From Stegostoma tigrinum (Eukaryota), in contig NC_081368.1 in NCBI RefSeq assembly GCF_030684315.1, forward strand, positions 42,175,734 to 42,239,733: 64,000 nt of DNA, given 5' to 3'. The notes beneath the pieces were generated by a model. The model ran no database searches. It saw only the letters and a program-made list of their open reading frames with translations, and was not told the DNA's origin. Below, piece by piece: positions 536-40,200 of this stretch (the stretch's first letter is position 1; the number at the start of each line of letters is the position of its first letter). A program made the position numbers and the translations under genes.

Positions 536-1398
536 CTGAAAGAGGCAGTGTACATGAAAGTTAGTAGATCTATTACCAGCATACATTAGATCAAACATAC
601 AGAGGAGAAAAGCGATTCTACAAACATTAGCTCCACCTCTTAAGTTCATGTCTTCATCCTCAATTAATCAATTTTAGTTCATGCTTTGGTAAGAATACCG
701 AAACAGGGAATGAATAACATCAAATATTGTGAAATAGTACCACAAATTGTCATAATGGATGCTGATTGATGAATCATCTGAAAGACAACATTTGTTTCTC
801 TCTGTACAGTTCCCTGATCAAACTAGAACTGGATCATTAAGCCTAGTTCAGAATCACAGAGATGGAAAGACTTTTGAGATCTGGAGAATATGCAAAGAAC
901 AAATACAACATTAATTTTTAGTGTCAAAGGGCCAACCTACAAGTTAGGTTTTTCAAACTCAACAGGAAGTAATTGGTCAGGGACCTAAACATGCTAAAAT
1001 AAGAGGTAAATCCATATATTTACATCAAACTAAATCAGAGGGAGAAAAATGACAAGTTTAAATGAGGGTAAAAAAACTCTGAACTAATTTCAAGAAGCTA
1101 GTCTTCAAATGAGCTGTGGGTAATTTGTAGAAAATACTTCCAGGTCTGGTGGTCGCAGGAACAAAATGAATATTATTCACAAACATTAGATACTGCACTT
1201 TGGAAACGTAAGCCATAGTGGGAAAGGTCATAGTTTCTCCATCGAAAGGGTGAATGGCCTTCCTCATCCCAACTTTCTGATAAATTACAACAACGTATTC
1301 AAATTCTAAAACTGAGCAGAGCTACCTGTAATAAAAGCTAATAAAGTGTGAAGCTGGATGAACACAGCAGGCCAAGCAGCATCTCAGGAGCACAAAAG

Positions 1399-1430
1399 CT
1401 GACGTTTCGGGCCTAGACCCTTCATCAGAG
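1399..1430 (-). ncRNA. Minimal hammerhead ribozyme motif, core intact
   Basis: Minus strand reads ct-CTGATGA-a-GGGTC-ta-GGCCC-GAAAC-GTC-ag. Core boxes and stem II are present; stem III is reduced to self-complementary ACGT. Confidence 0.75.
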
Positions 1431-2964
1431 AGGGGGATGGGGTGAGGGTTCTGGAATAAATAGGGAGAGAGGGGGAGGCGGACCGAAGATGGAGAAGAAG
1501 AAGATAGGTGGAGAGGAGAGTATAGGTGGGGAGGTAGGGAGGGGATAGGTCAGTCCAGGGAAGACGGGCAGGTCAAGGAGGTGGGATGAGGTTAGTAGGT
1601 AGGAAATGGAGGTGTGGCTTGGGGTGGGAGGAAGGGTTGGGTGGGCGGAAGAACAGGTTAGGGGGGCAGTGACAGGTTGGGCTGGTTTTGGGATGCAGGG
1701 GGGGAGGGGAAGAGCAGTGCTGGTTGTGTGCTGCAGTGGGGAGAGGGGATGAACTGGGCTGGTTTTGGGATGCGGTGGGGGAAGGGAAGATTTTGAAGCT
1801 GGTGAAGTCCACATTGATACCATTGGGCTGCAGGGTTCCCAAGTGGAATATGAGTTGCTGTTCCTGCAACCGTCGGGTGGCATCATTGTGGCACTGCAGG
1901 AGGCCCATGATGGACATGTCATCGAAAGAATGGGAGGGGGAGTGGAAATGGTTTGTGACTGGGAGGTGCAGTTGTTTATTGTGAACCGAGTGGAGATGTT
2001 CTGCAAAGCGGTCCCCAAGCCTCTGCTTGGTTTCCCCAATGTAGAGAAAGCCACACCGGGTACAATGGATACAATATACCACATTGGCAGATGTGCAGGT
2101 GAACATCTGCTTAATATGGAAAGTCATCTTGGGGCCTGGGATAGGGGTGCGGGAGGAGGTGTGGGGGCAAGTGTAGCATTTCCTGCGGTTGCAGGGGAAG
2201 GTGCCGGGTGTGGTGGGGTTGGAGGGCAGTGTGGAGCGAACAAGGGAGTCACGGAGAGAGTGGGACAAGGGTGGGGATGGAACCCAGGAAACCGCAGGAA
2301 ATGATACACTTGCCCCCAGACCTCCTCCCTCACCCCTATCCCAGGCCCCAAGATGACCTTCCATATTAAGCAGAGGTTCACCTGCACAGTGGTATACTGT
2401 ATCCATTGTACCTGGTGTGGCTTCCTCTACATTGGGGAAACCAAGCAGAGGCTTGGGGACCGCTTTGCAGAACACCTCTGCTCGGTTCGCAATAAACAAC
2501 TGCACCTCCCAGTCGCGAACCATTTCAACGCCCCCTCCCATTCCTCAGACGACATGTCCATCATGGGCCTCCTGCAGTGCCACAATGATGCCACCCGACG
2601 GTTGCAGGAATAGCAACTCATATTCTGCTTGGGAACCCTGCAGCCCAATGGTATCAATGTGGACTTCACAAGCTTCAAAATCTCCCCTTCCCCCACTGCA
2701 TCCCAAAACCAGCCCAGCCTGTTTCTGCCTCCCTAACCTGTTCCTCCTCACACCCATCCCTTCCTCCCATCCCAAGCCGCACCTCCATTTCCTACCTACT
2801 AACCTCATCCCACCTCCTTGACCTGTCCGTCTTCCCTGGACTGACCTATCCCCTCCCTACTTCCCCACCTCTACTCTCCTCTCCACCTATCTTCTTTTCT
2901 CTCCATCTTCGGTCCGCCTCCCCCTCTCTCCCTATTTATTCCAGAACCCTCACCCCATCCCCCT

Positions 2965-2996
2965 CTCTGATGAAGGGTCTAGGCCCAAAACGTCAG
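2965..2996 (+). ncRNA. Minimal hammerhead motif, core mutated (GAAA to AAAA)
   Basis: CTGATGA-a-GGGTCTAGGCCC-AAAACGTC-ag. Confidence 0.55.
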
Positions 2997-3776
2997 CTTT
3001 CGTGCTCCTGAGATGCTGCTGGGCCTGCTGTGTTCATCCAGCCTCACATTTTATTATCTTGGATTCTCCAGCATCTGCAGTTCCCATTATCACTGCTGAA
3101 CTACCATGCTGGGTATCCTCACTTTTTGCTTACTTCCATGATGTCAGTGAGTGGGAGGAATCCTTGTGCTTAGGATGACTCAAGCGATTGCAATGGGCAT
3201 AGTAAATGCAGACTGAATAGATGCAGACCCAGCACCACTTGGCCCTGAAGAAAATGTTGTCCCAATTAGATTTGCAAAATGGCTAACTAGCAGCCTTGTT
3301 GTACAGGGTCAGATAGTTGCAGACTTGCTCTCAGGCTGAACCAAAGCTGTAGCTACTTTTGAAGTTAACTAATGTAAATGTACTCAACAAGTCAAACAGT
3401 TTACTTTGAATAAGCGTTCCACAGACTTTATGACACCATATCTTGTTGAAACTAACTGACCAAACTGTAATTCTAGGTCTGAGGATTTAAGGCAAGAGCT
3501 TCAACAAAATCCATAAAGAACAAAAACTATTTGCATTTCTCCAGTGTCTTCAATATTAAACACTGTTCTGAGGCAAATATTTCCAGGAGTTGCTTGTGTC
3601 AGTATTTGCACAGGGTCTTTGAGTTTGCAGCAACTAAATCCACACAGTGACATAATTAGTACTGCCTTAGGAAAATAAAAAATGCATTTGTAATCACAGT
3701 AGTTAAAATCTGAAGGTTACCTGAAAGAGTTTAAAAAGTCTTTTACTTCAAGCATGTGACTAATTTTTTTCCATAC

Positions 3777-3902
3777 CTGTATTTTATTGAAATACTGTCC
3801 TGCATCGAATGGTACTACATTGTAAGTAGAAATTCCAATGACTGGTTTGTCAGTAGGATTTTTTGCTTTATAGAATGCCAAAGCTGTTTCTCCAGGAACA
3901 AC
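3777..3902 (-). CDS. COX11: COX11 coding exon 3
   Basis: VVPGETALAFYKAKNPTDKPVIGISTYNVVPFDAGQYFNKIQ. 126 bp, AG/GT boundaries, phase 0 at both ends. Confidence 0.97.
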
Positions 3903-4389
3903 CTGGAATGAGTTTAAAACAAAGGTAACGTTCTTACTTAACATAACTTGCTTACTCCTTAGTACTATTGCACCAGCATTAATAATAAGAAATCATAACA
4001 TAACAGCCATTAAATAGAGTTATGGGCCATATTATATAACAATGCTATCTCGACAACATAACAGGAATTTAAACATTTCTCTTTGTATTTCACAAACTGT
4101 GGCAAAAGACAGTGTGTAAAACATTTGCACAAGATCCCTGTATGCCCATGGATCTATGAATGGATTTAAGAGTCTCTCAATTTGTTGATCTTATGTCAAT
4201 GACATCAAAATGTCTAGGCCTGGTCTTTTTCTTAGATGTAATTTATATTGCTTCTTAAATACCAGAACATGGCATGTAAACACACATTCATGATTCCCGT
4301 ATTAATTCCCATTAACAGTGATTTATTCATAATTAAATATCATCCATTTTACCAATGAATCATGGTGAAGCAAAGAAATATGGCAATGC

Positions 4390-5020
4390 TGTGAAGAGAA
4401 CTTAAGGAGGTTGCAAATGCATATAAATAGGCAAAATATGGGAAAATATGAAGTTGTTAACTTTGATAGAAAGAACAATTACTTTAGAATTTTGAGGTGC
4501 AGAGAAATCTAGGTGTTCTAGTACTGGAATCTCAAAAGGCTACAATACAGGTAGACAGGTAATTAAAAATGCTAATGAAATATGAATCTTCATTATGATC
4601 CCAATTGAACATCAAGGAAAGGATATTATATAGGGCATTGGTAAAACCAGATTTCGAATGATGTATGAAGTTTTAGTCTTACAGTTTAAGGAAACATGTA
4701 AATTGGACCACTGGAAGCAACTTAGAGGAGGTTTAAGAGATTGATCCTTGAAGCAACTGGGTTGACTTACAAAAAAAAGGTTGAACATACTGGTTTTGCG
4801 CCCACTGAAGTTTAGATGACTAGGGGTTCATTGGAATTTGATTCAAGTAAGAAAAATCTTGGGTGGTCTTGGCAAGGTGAAAGGATGTTTTATCTGTGGG
4901 TTAGTCCAGAACTAAGGTTCGCTGCTTAAAAATCGGTGGTTGCTCTTTTAGGATAAAGATGAGGAACATTCCTTTTTCTCTCAGAGGGCTGTGAAACTTG
5001 ATCTTTCTGCTCAGAGGCAC
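4390..5020 (+). mobile_element. Heavily decayed CR1 fragment
   Basis: Recognisable remnants of CR1 ORF2 C-terminal codons (gaagttgttaactttg, agggcattggtaaaacc, ttctctcagagggctgtg). Confidence 0.55.
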
Positions 5021-5860
5021 TGTAAGAAACCACATACATTTCCTTTTTGAACTATAAACAGAAATGGAAGTTGGAGACTGCTACATAACCAAAATGCCAA
5101 GAAAGTTTTGCAACTTGAAAAATCAAGTGGTGCACATTGTTAGCTGTAAAAGACTATGTTGATTTTGGAACAATAAGATTGTTATATCATTAAGGTAGAA
5201 CAGCACCATGAGTTTCTGAGTTAAGGAGAAAATTTGTTGAACTGCAGTTTGCTATAGATCTGAGAGAACAGTACAGTCAGAAAAATCCAGAACATGCAAA
5301 TGCAAAATGCTTCTCTCCTTTTTCTGTTAGTGAAAAGACAAAAGAAAATTTGAAGAAATAATTCTAATGCAAGACGAGACCTAGGCCCATCTGATCAATC
5401 ATTGAATTGAAAAACCACCACTGGTCTTTAGACAAATACAAATCTTCATTGCTATAATCCAAGGAATTGAGAAACAATTTATCTACCTCGTAGTTTAGAA
5501 TCTGAGCTCCAGAAAATGTTTTCCTGTCCATATTTTTTGACCCATAATACTTACCTTAAATCCTTTTGATTTTGCCTTTTGTCTATTTTGTTTGTGAATG
5601 TATGTTTTGCAGTTTAAAGTAGTACATTTTAAACTGCATAATTGAAGCCTAGTAATCCTCTCCTTTTCCCTGTTATTTATTAAACATTAGGTTTATTTAG
5701 AATAAATAGATATTTGTCTGTAAATTACGAAGCCTGTTGAAAATTATTTTTGTCCTGAGTAGTGGTCAGTCAGGAAAATTTGTCATCATCGAACTTATTT
5801 GGTGTCACTGCTTGGACTACAAACTCACACCTATAAAGAACTCTACCTGTTTTAACTCAC

Positions 5861-6016
5861 ATAGATTTCAGTTTGCTGAGGTCTGAAATTCCACTGCAGA
5901 CTGGCATGGACATCTGCATTGAAAGTGACTTTAATGATTCGATCCTTCACGGGTTCCATGGTTTCTACTTGATCCACATTGTGACCAGCTACTGCAGCCC
6001 CTCCCAGTCCTGTAGC
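5861..6016 (-). CDS. COX11: COX11 coding exon 2
   Basis: ATGLGGAAVAGH...IKVTFNADVHASLQWNFRPQQTEIY. 156 bp, AG acceptor and GTGAGT donor. Confidence 0.97.
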
Positions 6017-7071: not shown

Positions 7072-7410
7072 TGCATGGCTCAGTGGTTAGCACTGTTGCC
7101 TCACAGCACTAGGAACCCAGGTTCAATTCCAGCCTTGGGCAACAAGCTAGGCGGAGTTTGTACATTCACCCTGTGCCTACATGAATTCCTCTGGTTTTCC
7201 CTCACAGACCAAACCCGCACAGGTTAGGTGGATTGGCCGTACTAAATTGCCCATAGTGTCCAAGGATGTGCAGTTATAGGTGGATTGGTAATGGGAAAAG
7301 CAGGCTTACAGGGTTAGGATAAGAGGTTAGCTTTGGATGGGATGCTCATTAGAGGATCGGTGTGGACTCAACAGGCTAAATGGCTAATTCCACACTGGAA
7401 GGTTTCTATA
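7072..7410 (+). mobile_element. tRNA-derived SINE (HE1/V-SINE-like)
   Basis: A box TGGCTCAGTGG, B box GGTTCAATTCC, central ggagtttgtacattc domain, LINE-like tail. Confidence 0.8.
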
Positions 7411-11515: not shown

Positions 11516-11657
11516 AAGAAAAACAACTTTGCGGTGTGAAAAACAAGTAATTTGCACTTTACATTTGGCTTGTTTAAACAGATTTCTTTTTACATTTGTT
11601 AATGTCTGCTTATTCCGGGAACTTGGGCATTAGGGTCAAACAGAAGATTATACTGAC

Positions 11658-11972
11658 CTGACAATAAAGTCTGTAGAGAGGTACAGCCGCATATGACATG
11701 CCAATCATTCCAACTGCTGTTGCTGCTATATACGTGAGTACGGTTTTATTCTTCTTCTTCCATGCTTCCTCCTGGCTCCGAGTGAAGGGATTATGGTTCT
11801 TGATACCATGCACCGGCTGTTTCAAAGTCAGATAACTTGGCCTCCAAGGAGTATACCGAATAAATACTGAATACAGTCTTTGTGAGTTAGACTGTTGTAG
11901 TCTTCGTGCACAGATATGACAAGAAGACATGACATACAATCTTGAGATTCTTGTCCAACAGAACAAAGTCAT
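11658..11972 (-). CDS. COX11: COX11 first coding exon (presequence-like N-terminus and TM helix)
   Basis: ATG at 11972. Arg/Ser-rich N-terminus, then KNKTVLTYIAATAVGMIGMSYAAVPLYRLYCQ, then a GTCAGT donor. The four exons join to 259 aa. An upstream AG acceptor (ttttgatttccag, 12058-12057) suggests a further non-coding first exon. Confidence 0.93.
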
Positions 11973-12589
11973 GCTGATTATTAGTCAGATTGCTGTGTTA
12001 ATGTGTAATCTTTACTTCTTTAGTGTAAATGGCAAATAGCAGTCTTCCTGCAATATCTGGAAATCAAAACCAAACTGTTATCACATTTCCCTTTATTAGT
12101 GAACACATCACACATGAATCATAGCCTACAGTAAGGGATTATGTTCTTTTAGGGCCCAAAAATTTGTTCAATGTGGCATGCGTTAAGTTGGATGAAATGT
12201 TTTCCCCTAAAACAAACCTTATGAATTGAAACCGTAAGGCGATAATATTGGGTATTGCATAAATCTACAAATTATTTGTGCAAGGTTAATAAAATCTTAG
12301 AATGAGTTAAACAAATGCATAGAAAAAAGAAAGGAATTTAGATGAATGTTTAGATCTAAGTTGTGAGAAATATTAACTCTGCTTTTTACCAACAGATGCT
12401 GGCAGCCTGCTGAGTTTCTACAGCAATTTATGCTATTGGTACTTGCTTATACATCTGTTTTGTTAACATCAGAATACCGCAAAACACTTTACAGCTAACA
12501 TAATCATAATAAAGTCTAGGCACTTTTGCTGGGTAGAAAAACCCCACAACCATTCTGTACGTAGCATGCTCCGTAAAGTATAAACAATT

Positions 12590-13662
12590 GGTTCTCTGGC
12601 AGAAAGCAGAAAGCAGAAAGTCAAAAGGATAGCAACTGGTGACAAGTGGCGATCCACAAGGGTCAGTGTTGGGACCACAACTTTTTATTTTTGCATTAAT
12701 GATCTAAATGAAGGAACTGAGGGCATTCTGGCTAAGTCTGCAGATGATACAAAGATAGGCAGAGGGATGGGTAGTATTGAGGATGTGGAGAGGCAGCAGA
12801 AGGATTTGGACAGGTTGAGAGAGTTGGCAAAGAAGTGGCAGATGGAGTACAATGTGGGAAAGTATGAGGTCATGCACTTTGGTAAGAAGAATAGAAGCAT
12901 GGGCTGCTTTCTAAATGGGAAGAAAATTCAGAAGTCTAAAGTGCAAAGAGACTTGGGAGTTCGAATCCAGGATTCTCTCAAGGTAAACCTGCTGGTTGAG
13001 TCAGTAGTTAGGAATGCAAATACAACTTTGGCATTTATTTTGAGAGGACTTGAATACACAAGCAGGGCTGTACTTCTGAGATTCTATAAGGCTCTGGTCA
13101 GGCCAAATTTGGAGTATTGTGAACAGTTTTGGGCCCATATCTCAGGAAAGATGTACTCGCCCTGGAGCAGGTTCACAGGAGGTCCGGTAGAATGGTCCCA
13201 GGAGTGAAAAGCTTTGCATATGAGCAGCATTTGAGGGCTCTTTACTTAATGGAGTTTAGAAGGACTGGTGGGTGGGGGTGGAGGATCTACATGGAACTCA
13301 CAAAATACTGAATGGCCTGGACAGTACAGATGTTGGGAAGATGTTTCCATTGGTAGGAGACTAGGACCCGAGGGTACAGCCTTAGAGTAAAGGGGAGACC
13401 TTTCAGATCTGAGATCAGGAGAAACTTCTTCAGCCAGAGAGAGTGGTGAATCTAAGGAATTCACTGCCACAGAAGGCTGTGGAGGCCAGGTCATGGAGTA
13501 TATCTAAGACAGAGATAGATAAGTTCTTGACTGTCAAGGGGATCAAGGATTATGGGCAGAAAGGAGAATGGGGAGGAGAAACTTAATTATCTATTATTGA
13601 GTGGTGGAGTAGATTCGATGGGCTGAATAACCTAATTTCTGCTCCTATATCTTATGGTCTTA
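12590..13662 (+). mobile_element. CR1 LINE 3' fragment
   Basis: PQGSVLGP, ADDTK, WQMEYNVGK, LVRPNLEYCEQFW, and a 3' tail tcttatggtctt. Confidence 0.88.
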
Positions 13663-13945: not shown

Positions 13946-14069
13946 GTGATAATGGGAGCTGCAGATGCTGGAGAGTTCAAGATAAAGTGTGGAGCTGGAT
14001 GAACACAGCAGGCCAAGCAGCATCTCAGGAGCACAAAAGCTGACGTTTCGGGCCTAGACCCTTCAAAAA
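13946..14069 (-). mobile_element. Short PLE 3'-end insertion truncated inside the hammerhead, 10-bp TSD
   Basis: Same sequence as 1341-1424 and its 3' extension. TTGTATAGCT flanks it at 13936-13945 and 14070-14079. Confidence 0.8.
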
Positions 14070-15068: not shown

Positions 15069-15164
15069 GAGATAACAAAGTGTGGAGCTGGATGAACACA
15101 GCAGGTCAAGCAGCATCTTAGGAGCACAAAAGCTGACGTTTCGGGCCTAGACCCTGTTTATCTC
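15069..15164 (-). mobile_element. Short PLE 3'-end insertion in RBM41 intron 1
   Basis: Same family as 13946-14069. Ends at ...gggcctagaccct, with short inverted ends gagataaca and tgtttatctc. Confidence 0.7.
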
Positions 15165-16134
15165 AAGGCGTTACTTTCTTTTGTTTGCTCGGACGAATTC
15201 TGATGTCGTGCACTACTATTTGCAGCCAGTTATGATTTACTAAAACCTTCAAGATTTGCCGATTCCCGGTCATACTGAGCAAATGTTTAACACTTGTGCA
15301 CTTTTATTATCAAAACGCTTTGTCTTCATTCAACCTCGATAATTCTGTTCCAAACATTTTCCAGATTGGTCATTTTAAAATAGTTGATCCTGCTTGTTTC
15401 TAGCATCTGGAAAGTAAAATAAGGGAATACGGATTGAGAATCTGTTGTGCTAATGCTCGTCAAACGTCAGGGAAGATGCATCTGTACGTTAAAGGGAGTT
15501 CTTTTTATAAGCCTGACAGTGAAAAGAAAGGGGATGGTTAGTTTAGTTGATTCGTTGTTGACGTTTTTCTGAGCCACAGAATGGGATTTTGAAGTGAACT
15601 TGGGTCTCTCTCCGTTTGGTCCTGGTCCTTGAAGGAATACAATGGTTAAAACATTACTTAGAAAAACTGCCAGGAAAATGGCACAAGATGAACTATCTGC
15701 CGACAGAGACAAAGACCTTCTGTCTTTGTTCAGTGCACTTATGATTGAAAGTGTAAAGACCGTTGTTAGTGTCTTTGTTCTAAAAGTGAAGATAATGTAA
15801 TTACTGTAGTACCAATTCGTTTAGTGAGTATCCCCACTATATATGTTCCATAAAGCTTATAGCCCAATTCAATCAAACCTGGGACTATTGGCATTGGCTA
15901 TTATTTGTTGACGAGAGGAGTGAGCTTCAGTTTGGGGAGACGATAAATTATTAATCCAGAAACTCAGCTAATATACTGGGAACAAAGCCTTGAATCCCAC
16001 CAGGGCAGATAGTAGGTTTGCATTCAATTTTTAAAAAAAATTTGGGATTAGGAAATGTAATGATTCAAGTGCACCTAGGGACAGGTAATAGATGCTGGCC
16101 AGCCAACAATGCTCAAGTAAATTTTAAGAAAGAT

Positions 16135-16262
16135 TTCTGAGGAAGGGTCACCAGACTCAAAACATTAACTTTGACTTCTCTTCACAGATGATACCAGACC
16201 TGTGGAGCTTTTCCAGCAAAACATCTGTTTATGTTTCTGATTTACAGCATCCACGGTTCTTT
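16135..16262 (+). mobile_element. Degenerate hammerhead-bearing mini-element
   Basis: CTGAGGA-a-GGGTC-acca-GACTC-AAAACATT, followed by the cagatg...agacctg...tccagca tail. Confidence 0.55.
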
Positions 16263-18700: not shown

Positions 18701-19286
18701 GTTTTTATAAAAAAAAATCCATAGGAAGATCTTCCATTCCAGATGGCAGCAACGAAATGTGTGCCATTTCCTGTAGTATGGGCAGAAGTAGCTGGCTCTG
18801 TTACCTTTTAACATAGTGAAATAATCTGATTATTTAAATTTGCTTACAAATGCAACAGTGTGGTTACAAGTGGGAGTTCACACATTGATGTTTTCTAAGT
18901 GTATCTTTGCTTTGCGGTAAAATGCAAAAATGAAGGGGTTGTGGATTTATGAATCCTGCCTGAAAAGAAATGTGTGTGGCTTGGTTGTCAAAGGTTTAAA
19001 GGGAGGCTCAGGATATTACTGGGAAGAAGGTGTAAAACGTGGCAAGGGCATCTATGCTGGCTGTGGGTATTTTGTTAGCTGCAAGTTTCACAAGGATGTT
19101 TTCAGAATGAGGTTTTATAAACTCTTGAAATTTAATCTGAATTTAATTTCAAGTTGAAATGGAGTTCAGTGGATCTAAGCAATAACTAATCAAACGAGCC
19201 ATTTTGCAGCAAACAGCTCAATATAGAACAGAGAACATTACAGTGCAGTGGATGTGAGTTTGCTCGCTGAGCTGGAAGGTTCGTTT

Positions 19287-19326
19287 TCAGACGTTTCATC
19301 ACCATTATAGGTAACATCATCAGTGA
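19287..19326 (-). ncRNA. Minimal hammerhead motif in the inverted segment
   Basis: Minus strand reads tca-CTGATGA-t-GTTACC-tataat-GGTGAT-GAAAC-GTC-tga. Confidence 0.7.
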
Positions 19327-19566
19327 GCCTCCGGTGAAGCGCTGGTGTTATGTCCCGTTTTCTGTTTATCTGTTTAGGTTTCCTTGGGTTGGTGATGTCA
19401 TTTTCTGTTCTTGTTCTCAGAGGATGGTAGATAAGCTCCAAATCAATGCGTTTGTTGATGGAGTTCCGATTGGAATGCCATGCTTCCAGGAATTCTTGTG
19501 GAAACCCAAGGAAACCTAAACAGATAAATAGAAAGCGGGACATAACACCAGTGCTTCACCGGAGGC

Positions 19567-19606
19567 TCACTGATGATGATACCTAGAATGGTGACGAAAT
19601 GTCTGA
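19567..19606 (+). ncRNA. Minimal hammerhead motif in the 5' pseudo-LTR
   Basis: tca-CTGATGA-t-GATACC-tagaat-GGTGAC-GAAAT-GTC-tga. One stem II mismatch and a C-to-T change in stem III. Confidence 0.65.
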
Positions 19607-22052
19607 AAATGAACCTTCCAGCTCAGCGAGCAAACTCGCATCCAGAACCTCAACCTGAGCTACAAATCTTCTCAACACTCGCTAGCACCTATGGGCGCAA
19701 TACGCTAAAACTGGCCTGAAGATGGGAAACCAATGCCATCTGACAGAGTGCTACCCCTGAACAGCTGTACTTCCCACACGAATGCCTAAAGAAACAGGTA
19801 CTACCTAAATGTCACAAGTACAAACCTCCCCTTAACACCCCACTAGCCAAAAGAATAGCAGAACAAAACAGGTGCAGAATGCTTAAAAGAAATGATCAAC
19901 GATGCCCACAACAGACTCCGTAAATACAACTGGGAAATTTCGTGCCAAAAAACTTTACTCACTGACGCGACAGACCATGAATGGACAGACACAGTACAAC
20001 GAGCCATAGACATTAGACAACGGCAAACACAGAAAACGAGAAAACTAGACCTGTAGAAAAAAACTAGATAAACTCACATACAATAACAACACAGACAATA
20101 CAGAAGCATGGATAAAAAACTTCAGACCGACCATTAACAGACACTGAAAAAGCCGTCTTAGTAAGAGGATTAAATTACAACTTCCAGGATGCGGACAAGA
20201 AAGATTTCTTAGCAGCGTTAGAAACAACACTGAAAGACAACAAATTTACAGAAGAAACCCAGCAAACCATCAGACAGACAGTCGCACCAACATTAAGCAG
20301 GAAAAAGGAAGGAAACACACTCTACACAAGAAAGGAAAGCACTAAAAGGACTCAAAAAAGATAAAAACATCGTTATCCTACCTGCAGACAAAGGATGCTC
20401 GACAGTCATTTTAAACCGAACAGAATACATTGAGAAAGCGAAGGCACTGCTTGCAGATTCTGACACTTGCCAACAGGTGGCGACAGACCCGACCCCACAA
20501 CTAGAGAACCGAATCACAGCCTTACTCAAAAAACTTAAAATCTGGAGAATTAAACAAGAGAGACTTCCAAAAAATGAAACCAGATGGATCCAACACAACA
20601 CGCTTCTACGGACTACCAAAAATTCAGAAACCAGGAGCCCCCCTCAGACCCATAGTCTCGCTACCAGGAACACTAACGTACAGATTAGTCAAGGAACTAC
20701 GCCAAAGACTAAAACACCTAATAGAAGATTCACACCACTCCATTCACTCAACCCAAGAATTCCTGAACACCAAAGACACCAAGATAGAAGAGGATGAAAT
20801 AATGGTCTCCTTTGACGTAACAGCCCTGTTCACATCCATCAACATCAACCTGGCCAAAGAAACACTGACTACACTATTAGAAGAACCGAAGACACATACA
20901 CCAGACACCACCAACCTCATCAGCAAGGACATCAAGCTAGTGGACCTATGCCTCACCACCCACTTCACTTTCAATAACAAAACCTACAGACAAACCAACA
21001 GTACACCCATGGGATCTCCGATATCAGGGTTCTTAGCAGAGGCAGTAATGCAGAGACTCAAACAAACAGCTCTGCCAATCATCCAACCCAAACTTTGGGT
21101 CCGCTATGTGGATGACACCTTTGTCATCACTAAACAAAACAAATTAGAGGAAACCTTCAAGACCATCAATAATACCCTTTACTGGCATAACATTCACAAA
21201 AGAGGAGGAAAACAACAACAAACTGCCATTCCTAGATGTCACAGTAGAGCGAACAGCCAATGGGGAACTTCAAACCAGCGTCTACAGGAAAACAACACAT
21301 ACGGACCAAACACTGAACTACAGGAGCAACCATCCCAACACCCACAAACGAAGCTGCATTAGAACATTATTCCAACGAGCGACCACACACTGCAGCACAA
21401 AGGAACTACGCAGAGCAGAAGAAAATCACCTATACAGCACATTTATAAAGAATGGGTACCCAATGAACACAGTCCGCCGATTTCTCAGCCACAAACCCAA
21501 ACAAACAGAATGTGCCCAGAAACCGCAACCACTCTCCCCACATCAAAGACATTTCCGAAATGACTGCCAGACTACTCAGACCTCTTGGCATCACGGTAGC
21601 CCACAAACCCACCAACACACTAAAACAGCAGCTAATGAACTTAAAACACCCGATACAGACAACAAGCAAAACAAACGTCATCTACAAAATACCTTGCAAG
21701 AACTGTGACAAACACTACATTGGACAAACTGGCAGGAAGCTAGCCACCAGGATACACTAACATCAACTAGCCGCAAAAAGACATGATCCACTATCACTAG
21801 TGTCCTTACATACAGAGGAAGGACACCACTTTGATTGGGACAACACATCCATCCTAGGACAAGCCAAACAGAGACACTCACGAGAATTCCTGGAAGCATG
21901 GTATTCCAACTGGAACGCCATCAACAAACACATTGATTTAGAGCCCATCTACCATCCTCTGAGAAAAAGAACAGGAAATGACATCACCAACCCAAGGAAA
22001 CCTAAACACATAAATGGAAAGCGGGACATAACACCAGCGCTTCACCGGAGGC

Positions 22053-22091
22053 TCACTGATGATGTTACCTAGAATGTGACGAAACGTCTGA
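22053..22091 (+). ncRNA. Minimal hammerhead ribozyme motif in the 3' pseudo-LTR, core intact
   Basis: tca-CTGATGA-t-GTTAC-ctagaat-GTGAC-GAAAC-GTC-tga: 3-bp proximal stem I, 5-bp stem II, GUC cleavage triplet. Confidence 0.8.
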
Positions 22092-23072
22092 AAACGAACC
22101 TTCCAGCTCAGCGAGCAAACTCACATCTAGAACCTCAACCTGAGCTACAGATCTTCTCAAAACTCGCTAATTACAGTGCAGTACATATCTCTTCACTTCA
22201 GCAAGAGGCCCATATGATTTATATTGCCACGGGGATGGGCTGTGGGAAGAAAAGGTCCATTGAAAGCTATTATAGGGTCAGGAAGTAGGTTTTTTTAAGG
22301 TGGTCGCAAACCCCTAAGATGCAAGAATCTGGGAAAGAGCAGTGAATTTGTTGTGGCCAATTTCTCTTGCTTAACATGCAAAATGCATGTGGGACTTCAT
22401 TCTTGTATTGAAAAGATCAGATTTGAGCGGATTTAAATGAGGCTAGAATGTTCTGATGTAATAAGCAGTACCCCTAGCTTTGTTTAGAAGGAGGAATGTT
22501 CAGGGTAAGACTTAGGATTGGAGGTTGGCTAGAAAACAAGTATGCCGTCATGAGCTAAGAAAATGTTTCAACTGGTTCCTAGAGAATGGTATGCCTGCTT
22601 GAGGGGTACAGCAAAGTAACAATGAAGGGGGATTTCAGTCATTTTAAAAGGTGAATAATAAACACTTTAATGTGGCAGCTGAATACTGTTAGAAACAATG
22701 TTACTGCACCAAACAAGCTAACAGCAAAAGTCTTAAAACCTGAAATCCTATATGATCCTTCCATGGAGTCACTGAAACACCCACTACCAAAACACAAATG
22801 TTTTGTGATCAGAACATTCAGCAACACTACATTGGTTTGACTTTGTTGAATCAACTTCTACCTCAGGAACAACTATTAACTTGGGTCAATTTTCATGAGA
22901 CCCAGCGTTACTTCACAAATACCAACATTCTTTGCATAAGAGAGAAATATATTTTTTAAAACAATGTCTTTGACTTATAACTGTTCGTAATCATTAATTA
23001 CCACTTAGTTGTTCTACCATTTGTTGACTTCATGCTGCTTTTTCTGATTTAAGTTTCCTTTTGTTTTGATAG

Positions 23073-28740: not shown

Positions 28741-29159
28741 ATGAAAAGTCTGTAAAAGACCAGAATGACCCTATTAATCAATTAGAAATGATGTTATCAA
28801 AGTTTAAAAATGACTCAGCCGGAATGGGAGACACTCCAAAAACCAGACAAGAGTCATCTTTGGAGATGCTCGCTACAGCAACAAGTAAGGAGGGTACCTT
28901 TAAGGAAATGACTGGTTTGTGTTTTCAAACACAAAGTCAGTTCAATGCTGCTGATCATTATGAAAATCAGAACTCCAAAGGGCTTTCAGTGAATATTCCC
29001 ATTCGAACCCTACCCAGCTCTGGTACTCACGGTCCTCAGAAAATCACCCAGCAAGTTGAAGCTGTTCCTAAAGAAGAAATCTGGAAGAACAAGCTGTCTG
29101 AGGAGGAAATTAAAATGATTCCAAGATTTTCAAATTATAATCCTGGACAACCAAGCAGG
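28741..29159 (+). CDS. RBM41: RBM41 coding exon 5
   Basis: Strong acceptor ctcacttcag. Variable linker, then VPKEEIWKNKLSEEEIKMIPRFSNYNPGQPSR, then a GTATGG donor. Confidence 0.92.
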
Positions 29160-30943
29160 GTATGGTATAATATTTACTGTTGAAAAAGTATTATGAACAT
29201 AATAGCTGATGAATAAAAATATCCAATTCTCACTATTATCTAGGGTGGAAGTGAAATGTAAGGCTGGTTATGTTGATGTTCTGTAATATAGTTCAAAACC
29301 TATTATGACCAATTGCATTATCCAGTGACTCAACTGAAATAATCTGTCACTGTATCACTTTTTAAATATATTTTCATGACGGTATGTTGCTGGCAATGGT
29401 GTTCTTTTTGCATCAGGTCCTAATCTAAGTTTTAAGATTCTCCCAGGTAATGCTTGATTATCTATAATTCTTGGGAAGGCGCAGGATAAATGTTTCTCGG
29501 TCCTTCAAATAACAAGATTCTTTTAATCCTGACTACAAAAACATTACCATTGTATGCTTGTGATATTTTCTACTTTGTGTATCAATCATTCTTGTTACCT
29601 GAACGGCATACAAATCTCAAGTATATTACAGTCTTGTGTTCTGCTATTAGGTTGATAATGTGTTAGGACTCATAGTTATCACACTTAGAATACTCTCAAT
29701 CTTCACCATCTTACAAACTGTTTTGAAAAATCCAACTTTGTGAGATCCAATTGTTAAATTTATCTTCACTTTTTGTAGGTGAACAGTTAAGCAGTTCATC
29801 TATATAATTTAAAATATGCGCATTTATATCCCACAGTCTTAAGATGCAGTGCTTTGGATCCTTTGTTTCCAAAATATTTCACCAGTCAGATCATTAACTT
29901 TGCTTCTGATTGTTCATTTCCATGGTTGAGGTGGGGATTGGGAGAAGAATTGAAAAGGTAGTTAAGTGAACTGTTCCTAACACATTTAAAATAGCTATTA
30001 AAGTTTGTTTTGGGCAATGGAGCAGAACAAACATACTACTTAAGTATATTTTCCTGGCTGTAGGTAGGAATAAAAGCATCTTTAATCAAATATGATCAGA
30101 AATGCTTTGTGCTTTAGCTTATCGATAGGCTTATTTTGGATTTAAATTGAGATGATAAATCGCAAAGTAGATGGAAGGAATCATTTAACCTTTTAAAACT
30201 ACTTCTTCCATATAGTCCATCAGTTTCTTTATTAAGACATAACTAATTCTTAAATGATTCCAAGGTTTTAAGGATTAATCTTTTTACTGCACTCAGTGTC
30301 CTTTTGCCATTGTCTTGTGATTCTAGGGATCAGCTTGGGCTCTTGCTTTGTATTGCTATTATGGATTGCCTGTATTTATTATGCCTTATTTGAAACCAAC
30401 ATTCAAAGTGCATCCTGACCAGAACTTACCTGGTATTAGGATGTTAGCCTTAGATTTAAACTCTCTCCATTTGGGATACAATATAAATGTTTTATCTCTG
30501 AAAATCCACAAGGCTGATTGATTAGGAAATCGATATTATATACTGGGCTAGTAAGAGATTCCTAAATGAAACAAACTATCACTAATTTTGTTTGATTCTG
30601 ATCTCAGTAAAGATCCATAAATTTAACTTGCAACAAGATCATTCAATATTTTTCAGAATTGGTAACTTTCCTACTATTGGCTTCGTTGGCTATGTTTGCC
30701 TTGAAGGCTTTGCCCAGTCAGTTAAATAGTCCAAGCTTGAGCCTTTGCTAGTATTATCTGATTTGGTACGTATCTATAATCAATCTCCAGTTCACATGGA
30801 GAAAAATATTTTTAGTGGGAAAGTTGTTGGAGTGATAATAAAATTTGGTCTGATCACTGGCAGATGTGACACTGCATTATTGCACGCTTTTACGTTCGCA
30901 GTTGCCCGTTTGTTTCACTTCCTTTTTCTCCACCTTCTCTTAG

Positions 30944-32274: not shown

Positions 32275-32375
32275 ATGTGGAGATGTCAACAGAAGCACTG
32301 AACACAGTGAATGGCTACAATCTGTTGGGCAAGCCAATAATAATAGAGTATGGACAGAACCGATTGGACCACTGA
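32275..32375 (+). CDS. RBM41: RBM41 last coding exon
   Basis: (N)VEMSTEALNTVNGYNLLGKPIIIEYGQNRLDH*. Total CDS is 1194 nt = 397 aa plus stop. Confidence 0.93.
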
Positions 32376-32955: not shown

Positions 32956-33023
32956 ATAAAATGAGCAGTTTTTGTTTAAGAAAGGATACGTCCCTATTTT
33001 AACGCCCTTAGTTCACATAATAA
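32956..33023 (+). terminator. Candidate RBM41 polyadenylation signals
   Basis: AATAAA near 32956 and 33018; another near 33484. Confidence 0.35.
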
Positions 33024-34568: not shown

Positions 34569-34684
34569 GGGCCTGAAACATCAGCTTTTGTGCTTCTAAG
34601 ATGCTGCTTGGCCTGCTGTGTTCATCAAGCTCCACATTTTGTTATCTCGGATTCTCCAGCATCTGCAGTTCCCATTATCTCTGA
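34569..34684 (+). mobile_element. Short PLE 3'-end insertion
   Basis: ggcctgaaacatcagcttttgtgc...gcagttcccattatctctga, homologous to 2981-3095. Confidence 0.7.
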
Positions 34685-34782
34685 TTACACTTGCAGGGTT
34701 GATGTGGGTTTGTGTGCCACTCTGATGCCCAGCAGTCTTAGAAGTCTTGTGGTGAGTTCTGACGTGTTCCTGATATGGTGTT

Positions 34783-34802
34783 GTGTGTGTGTGTGTGTGT
34801 GT
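34783..34802. repeat. (GT)10 microsatellite
   Basis: gtgtgtgtgtgtgtgtgtgt. Confidence 0.9.
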
Positions 34803-36939
34803 CGGGGTGTATAGAATCTTTCTGATGCTGTTCTGTAGACATCTCCTGATCCAGATCTTTTGGATATCTATTATCCTTGAACAATTGCAAGAGCTATTCC
34901 TCCTCCAAAACCTTATCTACCCCTTTTTTTAAATATTGATCTAGACCCCTCACTTTTCTGCGATAGATCCTCTGAATCTGGAACTCATGGACATAGTTAC
35001 ATATTTTGTAATGCTGGCTCTGAGTTTCAGATTCCACTAGCAAATAGATGCTCAAGAGTGGGGATGTCAGCAGCCTGGAGTGGTCAGAGCCACTTGGAGG
35101 CTTCCTGTGCTGGTCTGCTGTGGAGAAACCTTAGAGAAAGGCTGTGAGTTTTGCTGTCATAACTTTTGCTTTTTGTTTTTCTAACCAATGGTTATACTAT
35201 ATATAGCTGTGACCTTTTTTTCATTTCTTTTTCTGTACCTAAGATGGCATGGTGTTAGTGACATTGTTACATTAACCAAAGTTGTACCTAGGAACTTCTA
35301 TATCTATCACGTAACACAATTCAGGGTCCTCACTATGAAGATGGGACTTCTCTGCAAGGCCTGCACGGTGGTCACACCTACCAATATTGCCATGGATAGA
35401 TGCACCTGTGGCAGACGGATGTGGTTGAGGTCCAGTAGAATGTTTCCATCTTGCCAGTTTGGCAGCTATTTTAGGGATTTTGCCAGCTCAGTTGATAGTG
35501 ATACTACCAAGCATCTTGCTGATTGGCACTGAAATTCTCTATTTCCTCTGCCTTTTCTACACCCAGTGCTTCCTCTTAGTTGTGTTCTATGTGACTACTA
35601 GATCTGACTCACCCACAAGAAACATTCTTTATATATCTAGTTTTTCAAAAATCAGTTTAGTATTGTACACTTAAAATAAAGTTATCCCTCACTGAACTCC
35701 AATGGAAACAAATTCAGTCTGTTGAACCTTTATAAGATATATTCATCCCAGGTATCAACCAAGTAAACCTGTGAACTGCCTCCAATGCGTTTACATCTTG
35801 GTCAATAGAAAGGCCCATCTGCACATAGTATAAGAGATTTGGCCTTTTCAATGCCTCCTATAAAGCTAAGAACGTTCTGTTTCATTTATGTTCAATTCCT
35901 TTCAAGAAAGGATTACATTCCATTAGCCTTCCCTATTAAACATTGTTCTTGCATAATACCTTTTTGTGATGTGTACTAAACATCTAGATTCCTGTAAGTC
36001 TCAAAATTCTGAAGATATCCTTTGTTTAATAGTTTGCATTTTTTAATCTTCCTGTGTAAGTAACATCTTCTCACATTATACTACACCAGCCAGATTTTTG
36101 ATAAATTACAGCTACATCCATCCACAACCTAGTTTTATCCCCCTCTCAACATTCTTTCCTACTTTTTTATTTTGCTTCCCTCATCCAAGTCATTGATATA
36201 AAGTAGACAAGTTTGAAGCCTGAGTATAGACACATTCATTACATGCTGCCAAACAGAGGGCGACTCATTTATATACGTTGTGTTTTACTCGACAGCCACA
36301 TTATATCCATGTGAAAATGTTACCCCTATAATGAGCTCTGGCATTGCACAATAACCCCTGCTTTGGCAAAACAGGCTCCCACTTATCTAATTACCTTACT
36401 CAAAATGGAAACTCGGCCATTTGGTCCATCAAGCTTGCTTGACCATTGAATGAACATGACCAATACTTAATCTCAATGCCGTATTCCCACTTCCTCCTCA
36501 TACCATTTGATCCATTTAACATAAATAATTATCTATTTTGAATATAATTAGTGACTTGCTCTGCAGCAGAATGCATAGCCTCTGAAACCTGAAAACAAGT
36601 ACACAGAGCAAAGCCAACAAAATATAGTGGGGGTAATATGTAAAGAAGTGTTCATGCATTGTTGATGTGAAACTCAATACTGAGTCCAAATGAATGGAAA
36701 ATGCCAAAGTAGAAAATTAGGTGTTCCTCCTGTTTGCATCAAACTTTATGGAGTACTAGCAGGCCTAAGATGCAATTAGCATGGGAGCAAGGAGATTTCT
36801 CAGCTTATTTTTGTGAAGCACTATTGTTCTGGACACTCACCATCTGTTCCATTTACTGTTTCCATGTCCCCCTCTATCAACAGCATAAAAAGCATTTTTC
36901 AGCAGCTTTTAGTTCTAAAGTCGTATCTGAACCACAGAA

Positions 36940-37960
36940 AATAGGCCATTTGGCCCTTTGAGCTCACTCCATTTAACACTAAGCTTTCACTTTTTCCCCC
37001 ATATTCTTTAATCTCTTTAGACCTCAGACTATATTTAATATCTTTGTCAAAATGTTCAATGTTTTGCCTCAACTGCTTTCTGCTGCAGATAATTCCATGG
37101 GCTCGCTGCTCTCTGGGTGAGGAAATTCCTCAGTTCTAAATTCTAACTCCACATCCCTAGACTTTGATGTCTGATTATACATCCTTCAACTCCATTGTCA
37201 TTGGAACTATCCTTTCTGTTTACCTGGACTAGTCCAGCTAGAATTTTACAGATTTCTAGGTGAATCCCATCATTTTTTTAAATGCCAGCAAATATAGTTC
37301 TAACCATTCCAATATCTCTTCATACATCAGTCCTTCAATCATCTGGTACACCTTCATTACACTACTTCAACAGCCACAACATTCTTCCTCAGTTAGAGAT
37401 TAAAACAGCGCTCAATATTTCAGTTGTGGTCTACAATTGCAACAAGTCACTCCCGCTCCTATACTTGAATCCTTTCAGTATGAAGGCCAACATACCATTT
37501 GCCTTCTTCACTGCCTGCTGCACATGCACACTTACTTTCACTGACTGGTGTACAAGGACACTCAAGTTCTTGTTGCACTACCAGCTTTCCCAATCTATTG
37601 GCGTTCAGGTAATAATTTTGCCTTCTGGAACAAAAACAGAATTTGCTGTTAAAGCTCAGCAGGTCTGGCGGTATCTTGTGAAGAAAAGCAACCAAGAGTT
37701 CCTCAGAACTGTTCTGTGGACGGGTCACCGGACCTGAAACATTAATTCTTGATTTTCTTCTTCTTCACAGATGCTGCTAGACCTGCTGAGCGTTTACAGC
37801 AAATTCTGTTTTTGTTCCTGATTGAAAGCAACAACAGTTCTTTTGGTTTTCAACAATGTTGCCTTCGCGTTTTTGCCACTAAGGTGGACAACTTTACATT
37901 TATGCACATTATACTTCATTCTGGCATGCACTTGCCAGCTCATGCAACTTGTCAAAATCA
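36940..37960 (-). mobile_element. Decayed CR1 fragment hosting the fold-back mini-element
   Basis: Reverse-strand CR1 ORF2 remnants (aaggccaacataccatttgccttc, gtggacaactttacattt). Confidence 0.65.
37627..37818 (+). mobile_element. Fold-back mini-element with ~58-bp inverted arms and a degenerate hammerhead in the loop
   Basis: Arms at 37627-37685 and ~37761-37818. The loop holds CTGTGGA-c-GGGTC-accg-GACCT-GAAAC-ATT. It sits inside a CR1 fragment. Confidence 0.75.
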
Positions 37961-38379
37961 CAATGAAGCATCTCTATCAACCTCCCACCCAGTTCTTTTG
38001 TCATCTGAAACCTGAGAGATATTACATTACAGTTCTCATCGCAACGCTAACTGCCTCTCTCTCCACAGATGCTGCCAGACCTGCTAAGGATCTATTCCCC
38101 CTATCAATCACTTATCGTGAAGACTCTTCCAGTGTTGGGCGAGAGTTAGCAGAAAGTACGGGAGACAGATGCGTCATTGTTATAAAAACAAAGAACTGAG
38201 AATGGGGCTAGCGATGCTCACGTCGCATTAATTAACAAAATTACTAATCAAACATGCAGAATGTCATCACAAAGTATATGTGGGATGCAATATTCGCTGA
38301 TTATTTTTGCCAGCATTTAGTGTTAAGTACGCCGTCTAAAGATCAGCATTTGTACAACATAATTGCTGGATTCGGAAAT

Positions 38380-38520
38380 GAGAAGCGCCATATTGTACGG
38401 CACTCGACCACTGGAAGTCCAGCAACACCAGTACCGGGAGGCGCCATTTTGTACGGCATCCCCGCCGTTGACAACGTTGCGCCCTCACCTGGGAAACGGA
38501 GAACTCAATCAAATATGGCG
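38380..38520 (+). promoter_or_regulatory. MORC4 promoter/5' region with three YY1-like motifs
   Basis: GCGCCAT(A/T)TTGTACGGCA occurs twice (38385-38402 and 38441-38458). AAATATGGCG overlaps the ATG. The region is CpG-rich. Confidence 0.7.
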
Positions 38521-38553
38521 AAGCTGAGCGAGCATGGAATTCGGCTCAGTGCG
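38515..38553 (+). CDS. MORC4: MORC family GHKL ATPase (MORC4-like) exon 1
   Basis: MAKLSEHGIRLSA followed by GTAAGC. GIRLS is the MORC3/4 N-terminal motif. Confidence 0.88.
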
Positions 38554-38648
38554 GTAAGCTTACAAATAACGAAGCAACCGACCGGAATCAGACGGAGCTA
38601 AGTTGCACATCTACCAAATAACAGTGATGTTTTATTTTTGCTTTTCAG

Positions 38649-38721
38649 ATGAGCCCTACCTACCTACATACGAACTCGACCAGTCATACCTGGCCTTTTA
38701 GCGCAATCGCCGAACTGATAG
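38649..38721 (+). CDS. MORC4: MORC4-like exon 2
   Basis: [24 protein letters not shown]. 73 bp, ttttcag acceptor and GTAAGG donor. Confidence 0.92.
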
Positions 38722-38899
38722 GTAAGGCACCGCGCCGGCTTGTCATTCTGATCTTACAATCGCATGTCGCTGTTGCGCACCTTCTCCGCTAATCGCAACC
38801 GGAATTTAGCAGGCCTTACATTGTATATTTAATTGCAATCCCAACTAATCTCATGTGCAGACACAACCGAACTTGTGCGGGGGGATGGGAGTGATGTGG

Positions 38900-39420
38900 A
38901 GGGGAGGGAACCCTTGTAGGGGCGGGCTCTGTCGCAGTGTTACGCTGGGACCTTTGGTTTCGGCCCATCGGAGGCGGTCTTAAGGACCCGATTGGCCGAA
39001 AACGTTGATGAGCAGCGGCGCGACCCAATTGAACATGAACTGTCGTCTACCCTCCCCCCCGAGGTCACTCCAGGCGGCAAGCAAACGCTGCTGTCGTGTG
39101 AACGAGCGAGAAAAAAGACAGGGAGAGATATGCTGGGAGATTCAGGGAATTCTGTAGCCGGAAAGGGATTGTGCTACCCTTGGCGGCCGACCGCTGCTGC
39201 CCAATTCTTGAGCCCTTCGCCGTCACCTGACCTCTTCTTCAGGCATCCTATTGGCTCACTACGTCAACCAGCCACAGAGCGCGACCGAATCACAACAAAC
39301 AGCGCGTGACTGCGGTTGCGAACTTGACACTTCCGTGTTTTGGGCACGCGTGTCGTTGTGATTGGCCAGTGCTGGTGGCGGACTGTCATTGGTCAGTGCC
39401 AGCGTATGTGCTTGCAATAG
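38900..39420. promoter_or_regulatory. Second promoter-like CpG module in MORC4 intron 2
   Basis: Six CCAAT/ATTGG boxes (38991, 39025, 39201, 39250, 39361, 39388), GC box near 38919, CRE half-site ACGTCA at 39261, ETS-like ACTTCCG at 39329. Confidence 0.55.
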
Positions 39421-39536
39421 CACAGTTTGAGAATGTGGAAGTACGTAGAGAGCTCCAAGCAGAAACATCCTAAGATGCATGAATTTGAGTTTGGATTTAT
39501 GGCTTGGAAGGATGACAATTGAATTGCTCCTCCAAC

Positions 39537-40200
39537 CTCTGATGAGAGTCATCTAGCTTCGAAACGTTAGTTTGCTCTGTCTCCGTTGGATGCTGCCTGA
39601 CCCGCTGTCATAAGGTGTGGAGCTGGATGAACACAACACGCCAAGCAGCATCGTCGAAGCCGGAAGGCTGACGTTTCGGGCGTAGACCCTTCATGTGATC
39701 TCCAGCGTTTTTTTTAATTTTCAAACTAAACCGCAATTATTTCTCATGAAGGGTCTCGGCCTGAAGCGTCAGCGTTTTGTGCTCCTAAGATGCTGCTTGG
39801 ACTGCTGTGTTCACCCAGCTCCACACTTTGTTATTTTGCAATTATTGCAAAGTGTTTAAGGAACAGAATTGGACGTTTGGGCCTAATGCTAGATTAATCA
39901 ACTACAAAAACAGAAACTGCTGGATAATCTCAGCAGGTCCAGTAGCAGTCACGGAGAGAAAAGGGGTTCCTGGACCCAAAACATAAACTCTGATTTGTCT
40001 CCATGTCTGCTGCCGGACCTGCTGAGATTATCCAGCAGTTTCTGTTTTTGTTGTTGATTAATCTAGCAATGGGCCCAAATGTCCATTTCTGTTCCTCAAA
40101 CATTAATGGAGAGAGAAAGGGTTTCTGGACCCAAAACATAAACTCTGATTTCTCTCCATGTCTGCCAGCAGGATTGCTGAGTTTTTGCGGCAATTTCTGT
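39537..40200. mobile_element. Cluster of nested hammerhead-type PLE mini-elements
   Basis: CTGATGA...GAAACGTT at 39539-39568. A minus copy at ~39610-39695 is nested in its tail. A plus copy at 39742-39837 has TSD GCAATTATT (39733 and 39838). A fold-back spans 39853-40101, with a direct copy at ~40108-40200. Confidence 0.75.

Follow-up and report, generated by a model that had tools for sequence, protein, structure and literature searches.

Minimal hammerhead ribozymes are known from metazoan Penelope-like elements (PLEs). They have a type I core whose helix III consists of the palindrome ACGU only, a short helix I, an extra base before stem II and a G10.1-C11.1 pair; there are several families per genome, and the motifs are mostly single and thought to be derived from truncated PLEs (Cervera and de la Pena, 2014, PMC4209133). 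All of these features recur in the 64,000-nt stretch of the Stegostoma tigrinum genome analysed here (NC_081368.1, positions 42,175,734 to 42,239,733; below, “the window”). Its hammerhead motif is the known PLE minimal hammerhead, present in copies that are very likely inert. The scale is different: a single 30-nt core has 90,316 exact copies in this genome, compared with about 4,000 motifs in the coelacanth and about 9,000 in Xenopus tropicalis (PMC4209133).

Units of endonuclease-positive (EN+) PLEs were described as partial tandems with an adjacent inverted, 5'-truncated copy, a 30-40-bp tail at one end, a target site duplication (TSD) around the unit, and a TATA box and initiator (Inr) in the pseudo-long terminal repeat (pLTR) (Arkhipova, 2013, PMC3846280; Craig, 2021, PMC8557442). 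The same organisation is seen here, including the inverted 5'-truncated arm, the one-sided tail of 30-40 nt and the TSD. New here are counts of short and long tails in pairs (45/48 and 13/15) and an arm geometry that speaks against pure self-priming; also unlike the units reported there, most Neptune-type units in this genome have shrunk to the length between start site and tail. PAc, a Poseidon element of Anolis studied in vitro, was described to prime internally at two sites, to cut and extend both strands, to accept uncut RNA as substrate and, by prediction, to form a dimer (Frangieh, 2024, PMC11167929). Its open reading frame (ORF) starts inside the hammerhead, as in our family C, and the two internal starts, the extension of both strands and the use of uncut RNA are shared with the reading proposed below; short copies bounded by the putative start site, and the pairing of both sites in an insertion, are observations from the present genome. 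Non-LTR retrozymes are non-coding, hammerhead-bearing and pLTR-related, and by definition comprise two or more consecutive tandem units, each with its complete hammerhead (Cervera and de la Pena, 2020, PMC7229834; Li, 2026); a few tandem units of 330-430 nt in this genome fit, whereas the window copies are single or inverted and mostly broken. Neither start-site-bounded PLE copies nor two complementary DNAs (cDNAs) per RNA were found in the literature searched, the coverage of which was incomplete.

The window motifs belong to the pLTRs of at least three autonomous PLE families, two of the Neptune type (A and B) and one of the Poseidon type (C), and are minimal hammerheads of type I. The Neptune-type short copies are not random truncations: they have a narrow start zone approximately 4 nt upstream of CUGA and two fixed ends, +90 and +130 (positions inside elements are numbered from the C of CUGAUGA, taken as 0). 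The best overall explanation, to which we give a probability of about 0.7, is that the hammerheads belong to PLE pLTRs and that the short copies are dead-on-arrival, internally primed reverse transcripts. An earlier note on this DNA, made from the letters alone, had proposed a separate non-autonomous, retrozyme-like system. This was not supported, since the short copies match autonomous pLTRs, share haplotypes with long copies and are not tandem. The same note had spoken of PLE minimal hammerheads of several families, in very high copy number and mobilised by PLE reverse transcriptase (RT) and GIY-YIG endonuclease, and with this our results agree.

Each of the 15 positions for which that note had claimed a core or remnant does hold one (15/15). 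Both boxes (CTGANGA and GAAACGTH) are intact at four, namely 1401 (-), 19290 (-), 22056 (+) and 39539 (+), the last with a stem II of only 3 bp; one catalytic box is lost at six sites and both at five, such as 39962 and 40117, old family-B copies with neither box left. Cores with a stem II of at least 4 bp and CGTH number 3 in the window and 20 in 38 random 10-kb stretches (380 kb), and Markov simulations (10 x 444 kb) with the criteria of the genome scan gave 0 cores each; the motif in window and genome is not due to chance. A search of the window with Rfam at E<=1 returned six weak matches, none of them a hammerhead. The sites sort into families A, B, C and a rare D. Stem II is GGGTC-TAG-GCCC in A, GGGTC-ACCG-GACCC in B and GTTACC-TAGAAT-GGTGAC in C, and the boxes CUGANGA and GAAAC-GUH are present in the modal sequences of A, A2, B and C. 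Across families, stem II differs yet keeps pairing and helix III is reduced to palindromic ACGT, both as noted earlier. The features of the window are as follows.

1339..2263, minus strand: 3' end of family A (Neptune-type PLE) with a GIY-YIG coding piece, 3' untranslated region (UTR), hammerhead and short tail to +89; left arm of the head-to-head insertion 1339-3095.
1401..1428, minus strand: minimal hammerhead with two intact boxes, 4 bp in stem II and 2 bp in stem I.
2290..3095, plus strand: family A right arm, long tail to +128; core 2967-2994 reads AAAA in place of GAAA; the pair has no clear TSD.
13946..14065, minus strand: short copy of family A with a 10-bp TSD, spanning +4 to +126, without the first box.
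15072..15155, minus strand: short copy of family A, spanning +7 to +90, without the first box; TSD not found.
16133..16262, plus strand: old short copy of family B (second Neptune-type PLE), second box mutated.
19250..19500, minus strand: inverted arm of family C (Poseidon-type) with short tail; core 19290-19323 with both boxes.
19503..22169, plus strand: near-full Poseidon-type element with 5' pLTR, broken ORF (RT, GIY-YIG) and 3' pLTR.
34570..34685, plus strand: short copy of family A, spanning +15 to +130, with neither box left.
37627..37847, strand not applicable: head-to-head pair of family B copies with a candidate 8-bp TSD; the core at about 37714 is decayed.
39531..39725, plus strand: short copy of family D, a rare third Neptune-like pLTR; both boxes present in core 39539-39568; right end approximate.
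39610..39694, minus strand: family A short copy, +3 to +87, nested within the family D copy.
39742..39838, plus strand: short copy of family A with a 9-bp TSD, spanning about -1 to +94, with damage in both boxes.
39853..40201, strand not applicable: old fold-back of the family B type with its arms at 39853-39961 and 39994-40102, and another copy at about 40108-40201; catalytic boxes gone.
58157..58215, plus strand: family A fragment, +31 to +89, beyond the span of the earlier note.

Both arms of the insertion 1339-3095 contain GIY-YIG coding sequence. The Poseidon element (5' pLTR core at 19570 with the second box mutated, 3' pLTR core at 22056-22088 with both boxes) and its inverted arm form a single insertion, 19250-22169, with a 13-bp TSD at 19237-19249 and 22170-22182. 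That the sites are 15 independent mini-elements was not confirmed: 1401 and 2967 belong to one insertion and 19290, 19570 and 22056 to another, both with PLE coding sequence. TSDs are clear for 14042 (10 bp), 39746 (9 bp) and the Poseidon element (13 bp), and possibly present for 37627-37847 (8 bp); no TSD was found for the other 9 of the 13 spans tested. The region 39531-39850 is a pile-up of three PLE end pieces (A nested in D, a second A alongside), and small PLE tail fragments also lie at 1-35, 38055-38090 and 42528-42559.

Family A is the pLTR of a 3.75-kb pLTR-ORF-pLTR element (locus L069) interrupted by stops and frameshifts. RT-type motifs and, at the C-terminal end, a GIY-YIG domain are visible in its frames, the latter with a weak Pfam match (E 0.0038) below the cut-off of the profile, together with a linker C-x4-C-x2-C that was also read in the family A coding piece of the window; Pfam searches with two pieces of this element gave no RVT_1 match. 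A second Neptune-type element (L154/L161; endonuclease 39-43% identical), of which only the GIY-YIG end was observed, has family B as its pLTR. A CX2-5CxxC linker between RT and endonuclease is described as a feature of the Neptune clade (Craig, 2021, PMC8557442), and families A and B appear to be EN+ PLEs of this clade. Family C is represented by the Poseidon element of the window itself (RVT_1, Pfam E 5.5e-12; GIY-YIG read by eye), has no zinc linker and opens its reading frame inside the hammerhead; its RT gave 0 matches in a PDB sequence search. Among 10 window ORFs searched with Pfam, RVT_1 was found in two, and the family A GIY-YIG piece was unmatched. No parent element was found for family D, which has three matches in the sampled DNA. 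Poseidon-like hammerheads of further families, which differ in the pairs of stem I and stem II, were seen at L043, L069 and L110.

The short copies match the pLTRs of these elements (L069 for A, L154/L161 for B, the window element for C). They are single or head-to-head and mostly contain sequence upstream of the cut site; the TATA-like box sits upstream of them and, like the region downstream of the tail, is not included. The gatgctgc tail, earlier described as common to most copies, is shared in part only, being absent from the Poseidon family. A gatgctg motif common to A, B and D is complementary to cagcatc in the tail, and a hairpin between the two is visible in the folds of A and D, with z scores of only -0.03 (A), -0.05 (B) and -1.0 (D), none of them significant. 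A coding role for this tail was ruled out by inspection, as family A meets a stop within 30 codons. Families A, B and D also have, at +30..+55, a pyrimidine tract followed by AG and ATG that resembles a splice acceptor.

Exact counts in the genome were 150,564 for a 23-mer of family A (its whole 30-nt core is the one counted above), 12,368 for a 17-mer of family C and 5,551 for an 18-mer of family B, with 0 or 1 for reversed-sequence controls. We found 102 family-A copies in 57 random stretches (570 kb), which extrapolates to about 570,000 over the 3.2-Gb genome. Copy ends were collected from the window, from 57 random loci and from the 79 of 90 motif-anchored loci that remained once 11 overlapping ones had been removed.

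The 5' ends of family A are concentrated just upstream of the core. Among 53 young copies from random loci, 23 start at -6..+4, 9 at +9..+31, 2 at -27/-33 and 19 at -143 or further, with a filter blind to starts below about +33. Of the 44 copies reaching +4, 23 stop within 11 nt, while only 2 of the other 21 stop in the next 130 nt. In family B, 59/92 matches start at -8..+3 and 8 further upstream, a peak that old copies may overstate if their parents differ upstream. Departures from the parent sequence over the whole genome number at least 8,575 at -5 (the upstream-base filter lowers this count) versus 1,090 at -12, the latter mostly C-to-T. In the contigs of run X1, loose ends were found at -1 (549, a class that includes subfamily variants), -4 (136), +90 (184) and +129 (66); depth over the core is 3x that upstream, and one extra base stands beside -4. 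TATA-like boxes are located above -4 in the parents, TATTTAT at 30 nt in A and TATAAA at 28 nt in B, and the bases at -4 fit TCT and Inr motifs. The base before -4 is G in 74/100 listed junctions and, among those judged by eye to have no inverted arm, in 17/29 (25% expected, p 1e-4); a copied cap would fit such an extra G. In family C, the core is preceded at about 47 nt by an AT-rich box (window 21995-22040), and 3/57 ends are at -16/-17, without a clear peak.

The 3' ends of family A cluster at +85..+100 and +122..+142, which corresponds to the known tail. Unpaired copies are divided almost evenly between them (51 with a short tail, 50 with a long one, 2 other). In contrast, 45 of the 48 head-to-head pairs combine a short and a long tail and 3 have both short, counting old subfamilies and two window pairs; the same combination occurs in 13/15 family C pairs. 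A short inverted arm, always of the other tail class, is concealed in 6/50 unpaired young copies (one of them at threshold) versus 15/1000 controls. TSDs of at least 8 bp surround 23/28 pairs, 8/21 short singles, 10/26 long singles and 13/300 controls. Paired arms agree at 150/166 diagnostic sites, compared with a mean of 56% and a maximum of 71% in 2000 permutations. At 18/20 loci chosen for a region behind the tail, that region rejoins the 3' UTR by a locus-specific junction, and this private junction is identical in both arms at 8/8 loci where both reach it (7 of the 20 and L092). These common haplotypes and private junctions indicate that both arms are usually made from one template. Internally deleted family-A units at L011-L030, L092 and L054/L180 join +255..+390 (often +258, +266 or +283) to the 3' UTR; in run X1 contigs the joints land at +214..+266 and depth is down tenfold by +300. 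Possibly, this joint zone is the end of a short pLTR transcript or of a protein-bound region.

In the reading that we prefer, -4 is likely to be the transcription start, judging by DNA ends and motifs, so that the hammerhead would form the first 35 nt of the PLE RNA and the 5' arm of stem I its first four bases. The RT would prime internally at +90 or +130 in the 5' pLTR of an uncut RNA, from where only about 95 or 135 nt are left to the capped end; running off there, it would produce the short copies. At even odds, in our estimate, the two ends of the cut target DNA prime separate cDNAs on the same RNA, one per site, and the cDNA ends are joined head to head; two primers on one RNA, one per target end, would give short/long pairs under one TSD. 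PLE RT is not known to have RNase H, so that one RNA could be read twice. Copies extending past -4 may come from priming in the 3' pLTR, strand transfer or a circle.

A different origin of the inverted arm was proposed by Arkhipova (2013, PMC3846280) and Craig (2021, PMC8557442), namely self-priming by fold-back, with endonuclease resolution producing the asymmetry of tails; the 5' cluster might then reflect RT stalling at the hammerhead fold. This published model agrees with the common template of the arms, with the correlation of their 5' ends (rho 0.56) and with the frequent perfect palindromes and mini-inversions. However, an arm copied from another cannot outreach its template in the 5' direction, yet in 45 pairs the short-tail arm reaches further in 18, the long one in 9 and both end within 5 nt in 18, and the short-tail arm again reaches further in 4 of the 7 junction-sharing short/long pairs (L012, L029, L030 and L092). 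Stalling is at odds with the position of the end peak, past stem II and at promoter spacing, and with the lack of such a peak in family C, whose stem II is longer. We regard fold-back as somewhat unlikely.

Several observations weigh against internal priming on an RNA that starts at -4. The start site was deduced from DNA ends and promoter motifs. Family C has no start peak, with 2/57 copies at -8..+4 and ends broadly spread, and this reading does not account for the passage of long copies beyond -4. Ten of the 17 junctions with G end in AG, and the G may therefore have been provided by snap-back or microhomology. The pair in the window itself agrees at only 3/6 diagnostic sites, and haplotypes common to both arms may also reflect equal age or conversion of one arm by the other; if palindrome centres were trimmed later, the short arm might merely seem to reach further. 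At six polymorphic sites of family A, the older haplotypes are rich in short copies (GTTTCG 10 short versus 2 long, ATCCCG 4 versus 0), and some amplification of the short copies themselves may have taken place. Finally, there are 5,848 departures at the predicted cut site, between +27 and +28 in A; 72 of 100 listed are not T, corresponding to about 4,200.

The last observation raises the question of whether ribozyme cleavage is relevant for a part of the family, with cut RNA circularised or used as a template and giving +28 ends and tandems of more than one unit. Next to the cut site, 2,417 departures were counted one base before (about 45% non-transition, or about 1,100) and 4,040 three bases after (36/100, or about 1,450), so the local excess of ends at +28 is approximately 3-4-fold; 2/53 young random copies start at +26/+28. 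About 12 of the listed cut-site events are perfect palindromes centred on the self-complementary AGCT, and at +28..+31 of family A (window 1397-1400, minus strand) such palindromes are found together with locally enriched 5' ends. Two explanations fit: cutting of a few percent of the templates by the ribozyme, or AGCT microhomology that draws the junctions there. Cleavage would also agree with the tandem repetition of one junction within an arm (L011, L021 and L054/L180) and with the covariation of stems I and II between families.

The modal sequences keep one unpaired base before stem II and G10.1-C11.1, with stem II of 4, 5 or 6 bp (by eye). Stem I pairs are U-A/C-G in A (2 bp), U-A/U-A/G-C/A-U in B (4 bp) and A-U/C-G/U-A in C (3 bp); the helix I of PLE minimal hammerheads is given as 4-5 bp, and one of 2 bp was described for D. 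virilis (Cervera and de la Pena, 2014, PMC4209133). Such covariation, over a handful of families only, supports selection on the parents. RNAalifold on a MAFFT alignment of 13 copies, in which stems of unequal length were misaligned, did not recover the hammerhead (0/8 pairs compensatory). All families have ACGU, a palindrome able to pair only from one copy to another, with a self-duplex of -1.7 kcal/mol. Family A favours a hairpin that pairs both catalytic boxes (-11.4 versus -3.6 kcal/mol for the hammerhead) and family C likewise prefers an alternative fold (-12.0 versus -8.0 kcal/mol), whereas in family B the hammerhead is the minimum in isolation and stem I is lost in longer RNA. For PLE minimal hammerheads, cleavage is described as taking place in a dimer and as weak or helped by protein; a forced dimer fold of L011 lies 34 kcal/mol above the minimum in a crude model. 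As AGCT microhomology can account for the +28 excess, stem I of family A has just 2 bp and no RNA ends at the cut site were found in vivo by Frangieh (2024, PMC11167929), a role of cleavage seems unlikely. Solo copies have no partner, and RNA across an inverted pair would be double-stranded, so the window copies are quite probably inert under this modelling, the ribozyme neither cutting in solo or inverted copies nor being needed to make them.

It is more doubtful still that the short copies constitute an independent non-autonomous family that is transcribed, undergoes cleavage as dimers and relies on mobilisation in trans. In favour of such a family are 5' and 3' ends that are fixed, TSDs in a part of the short singles, haplotype proportions different from those of long copies, tandem units with a repeated junction and the small end excess at the cut site. 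Nevertheless, the main haplotypes of young family A at the six sites are common to short and long copies (GTCTTA 15 versus 18, GGCTTA 8 versus 10), and no diagnostic subfamily structure specific to short copies was found there. The short copies also lack the TATA box and the post-tail region; an internal promoter was described in D. virilis Penelope (Schostak, 2008). At least one box is missing from 11/15 window cores, the majority of ends are found upstream of the cut site, and tandem units of family A or C are absent from the window. That the short copies are just random 5' truncations, the alternative that the earlier note itself had put up for testing, is highly improbable: the spread ends of family C and the 21/53 young family-A copies ending between -27 and -1923 would suit it, but the step in the ends of copies reaching +4, the genome-wide departures and the contig loose ends refute it for A and B, unless unseen parents with other upstream sequence explain the step.

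No tandem array in which two or more consecutive units each have a complete hammerhead was found in the window. Elsewhere in the genome, L011, L021 and L054/L180 have one junction tandemly repeated inside an arm, giving 330-430-nt units with a core each, which is the form of non-LTR retrozymes; linear and circular RNAs of unit length are a further mark of retrozymes. These units were found via a selected query and are rare (1 insertion among 105 random copies). They fit the birth of retrozymes from PLE pLTRs as proposed by Li, Clavereau and Pollet (2026, 10.64898/2026.07.22.740005). Returning to internal priming on capped RNA, we tentatively suggest, at somewhat less than even odds, a wider picture: a hammerhead forming the first 35 nt of the capped transcript of Neptune-type PLEs, a dimeric RT/endonuclease priming two cDNAs per RNA, one per tail site, from both ends of the cut DNA, strong-stop-like products of the 5' pLTR integrating by the hundred thousand, and internal jumps (hammerheads 330-430 nt apart) giving tandem units copied for more than one round, that is, retrozymes at birth.

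With regard to the remaining window content, an exon-like stretch at 28998-29180 (+) matches RNA-binding protein 41 (PDB 9xu3 chain y, E 1.4e-14), and the window repeats are probably in or near introns of this gene. The end of the 11610-11984 (-) ORF, considered as a possible COX11 exon, was not supported as such by a PDB search, which returned only designed repeat proteins. Another repeat, with an RT of the long interspersed element type, is present as fragments at 12584-13207, 40201-40925 and 56380-57852 (RVT_1 at 56832), and tRNA-like heads of short interspersed elements lie at 7076 and 52140.

Overall, the end statistics add a testable mechanism for the copying of PLEs. With several hundred thousand insertions of one family, questions of PLE biology become testable by counting: where the RNA starts, what role the ribozyme has in defining the template, how inverted arms and the one-sided tail originate, and how tandem retrozymes are born from pLTRs.

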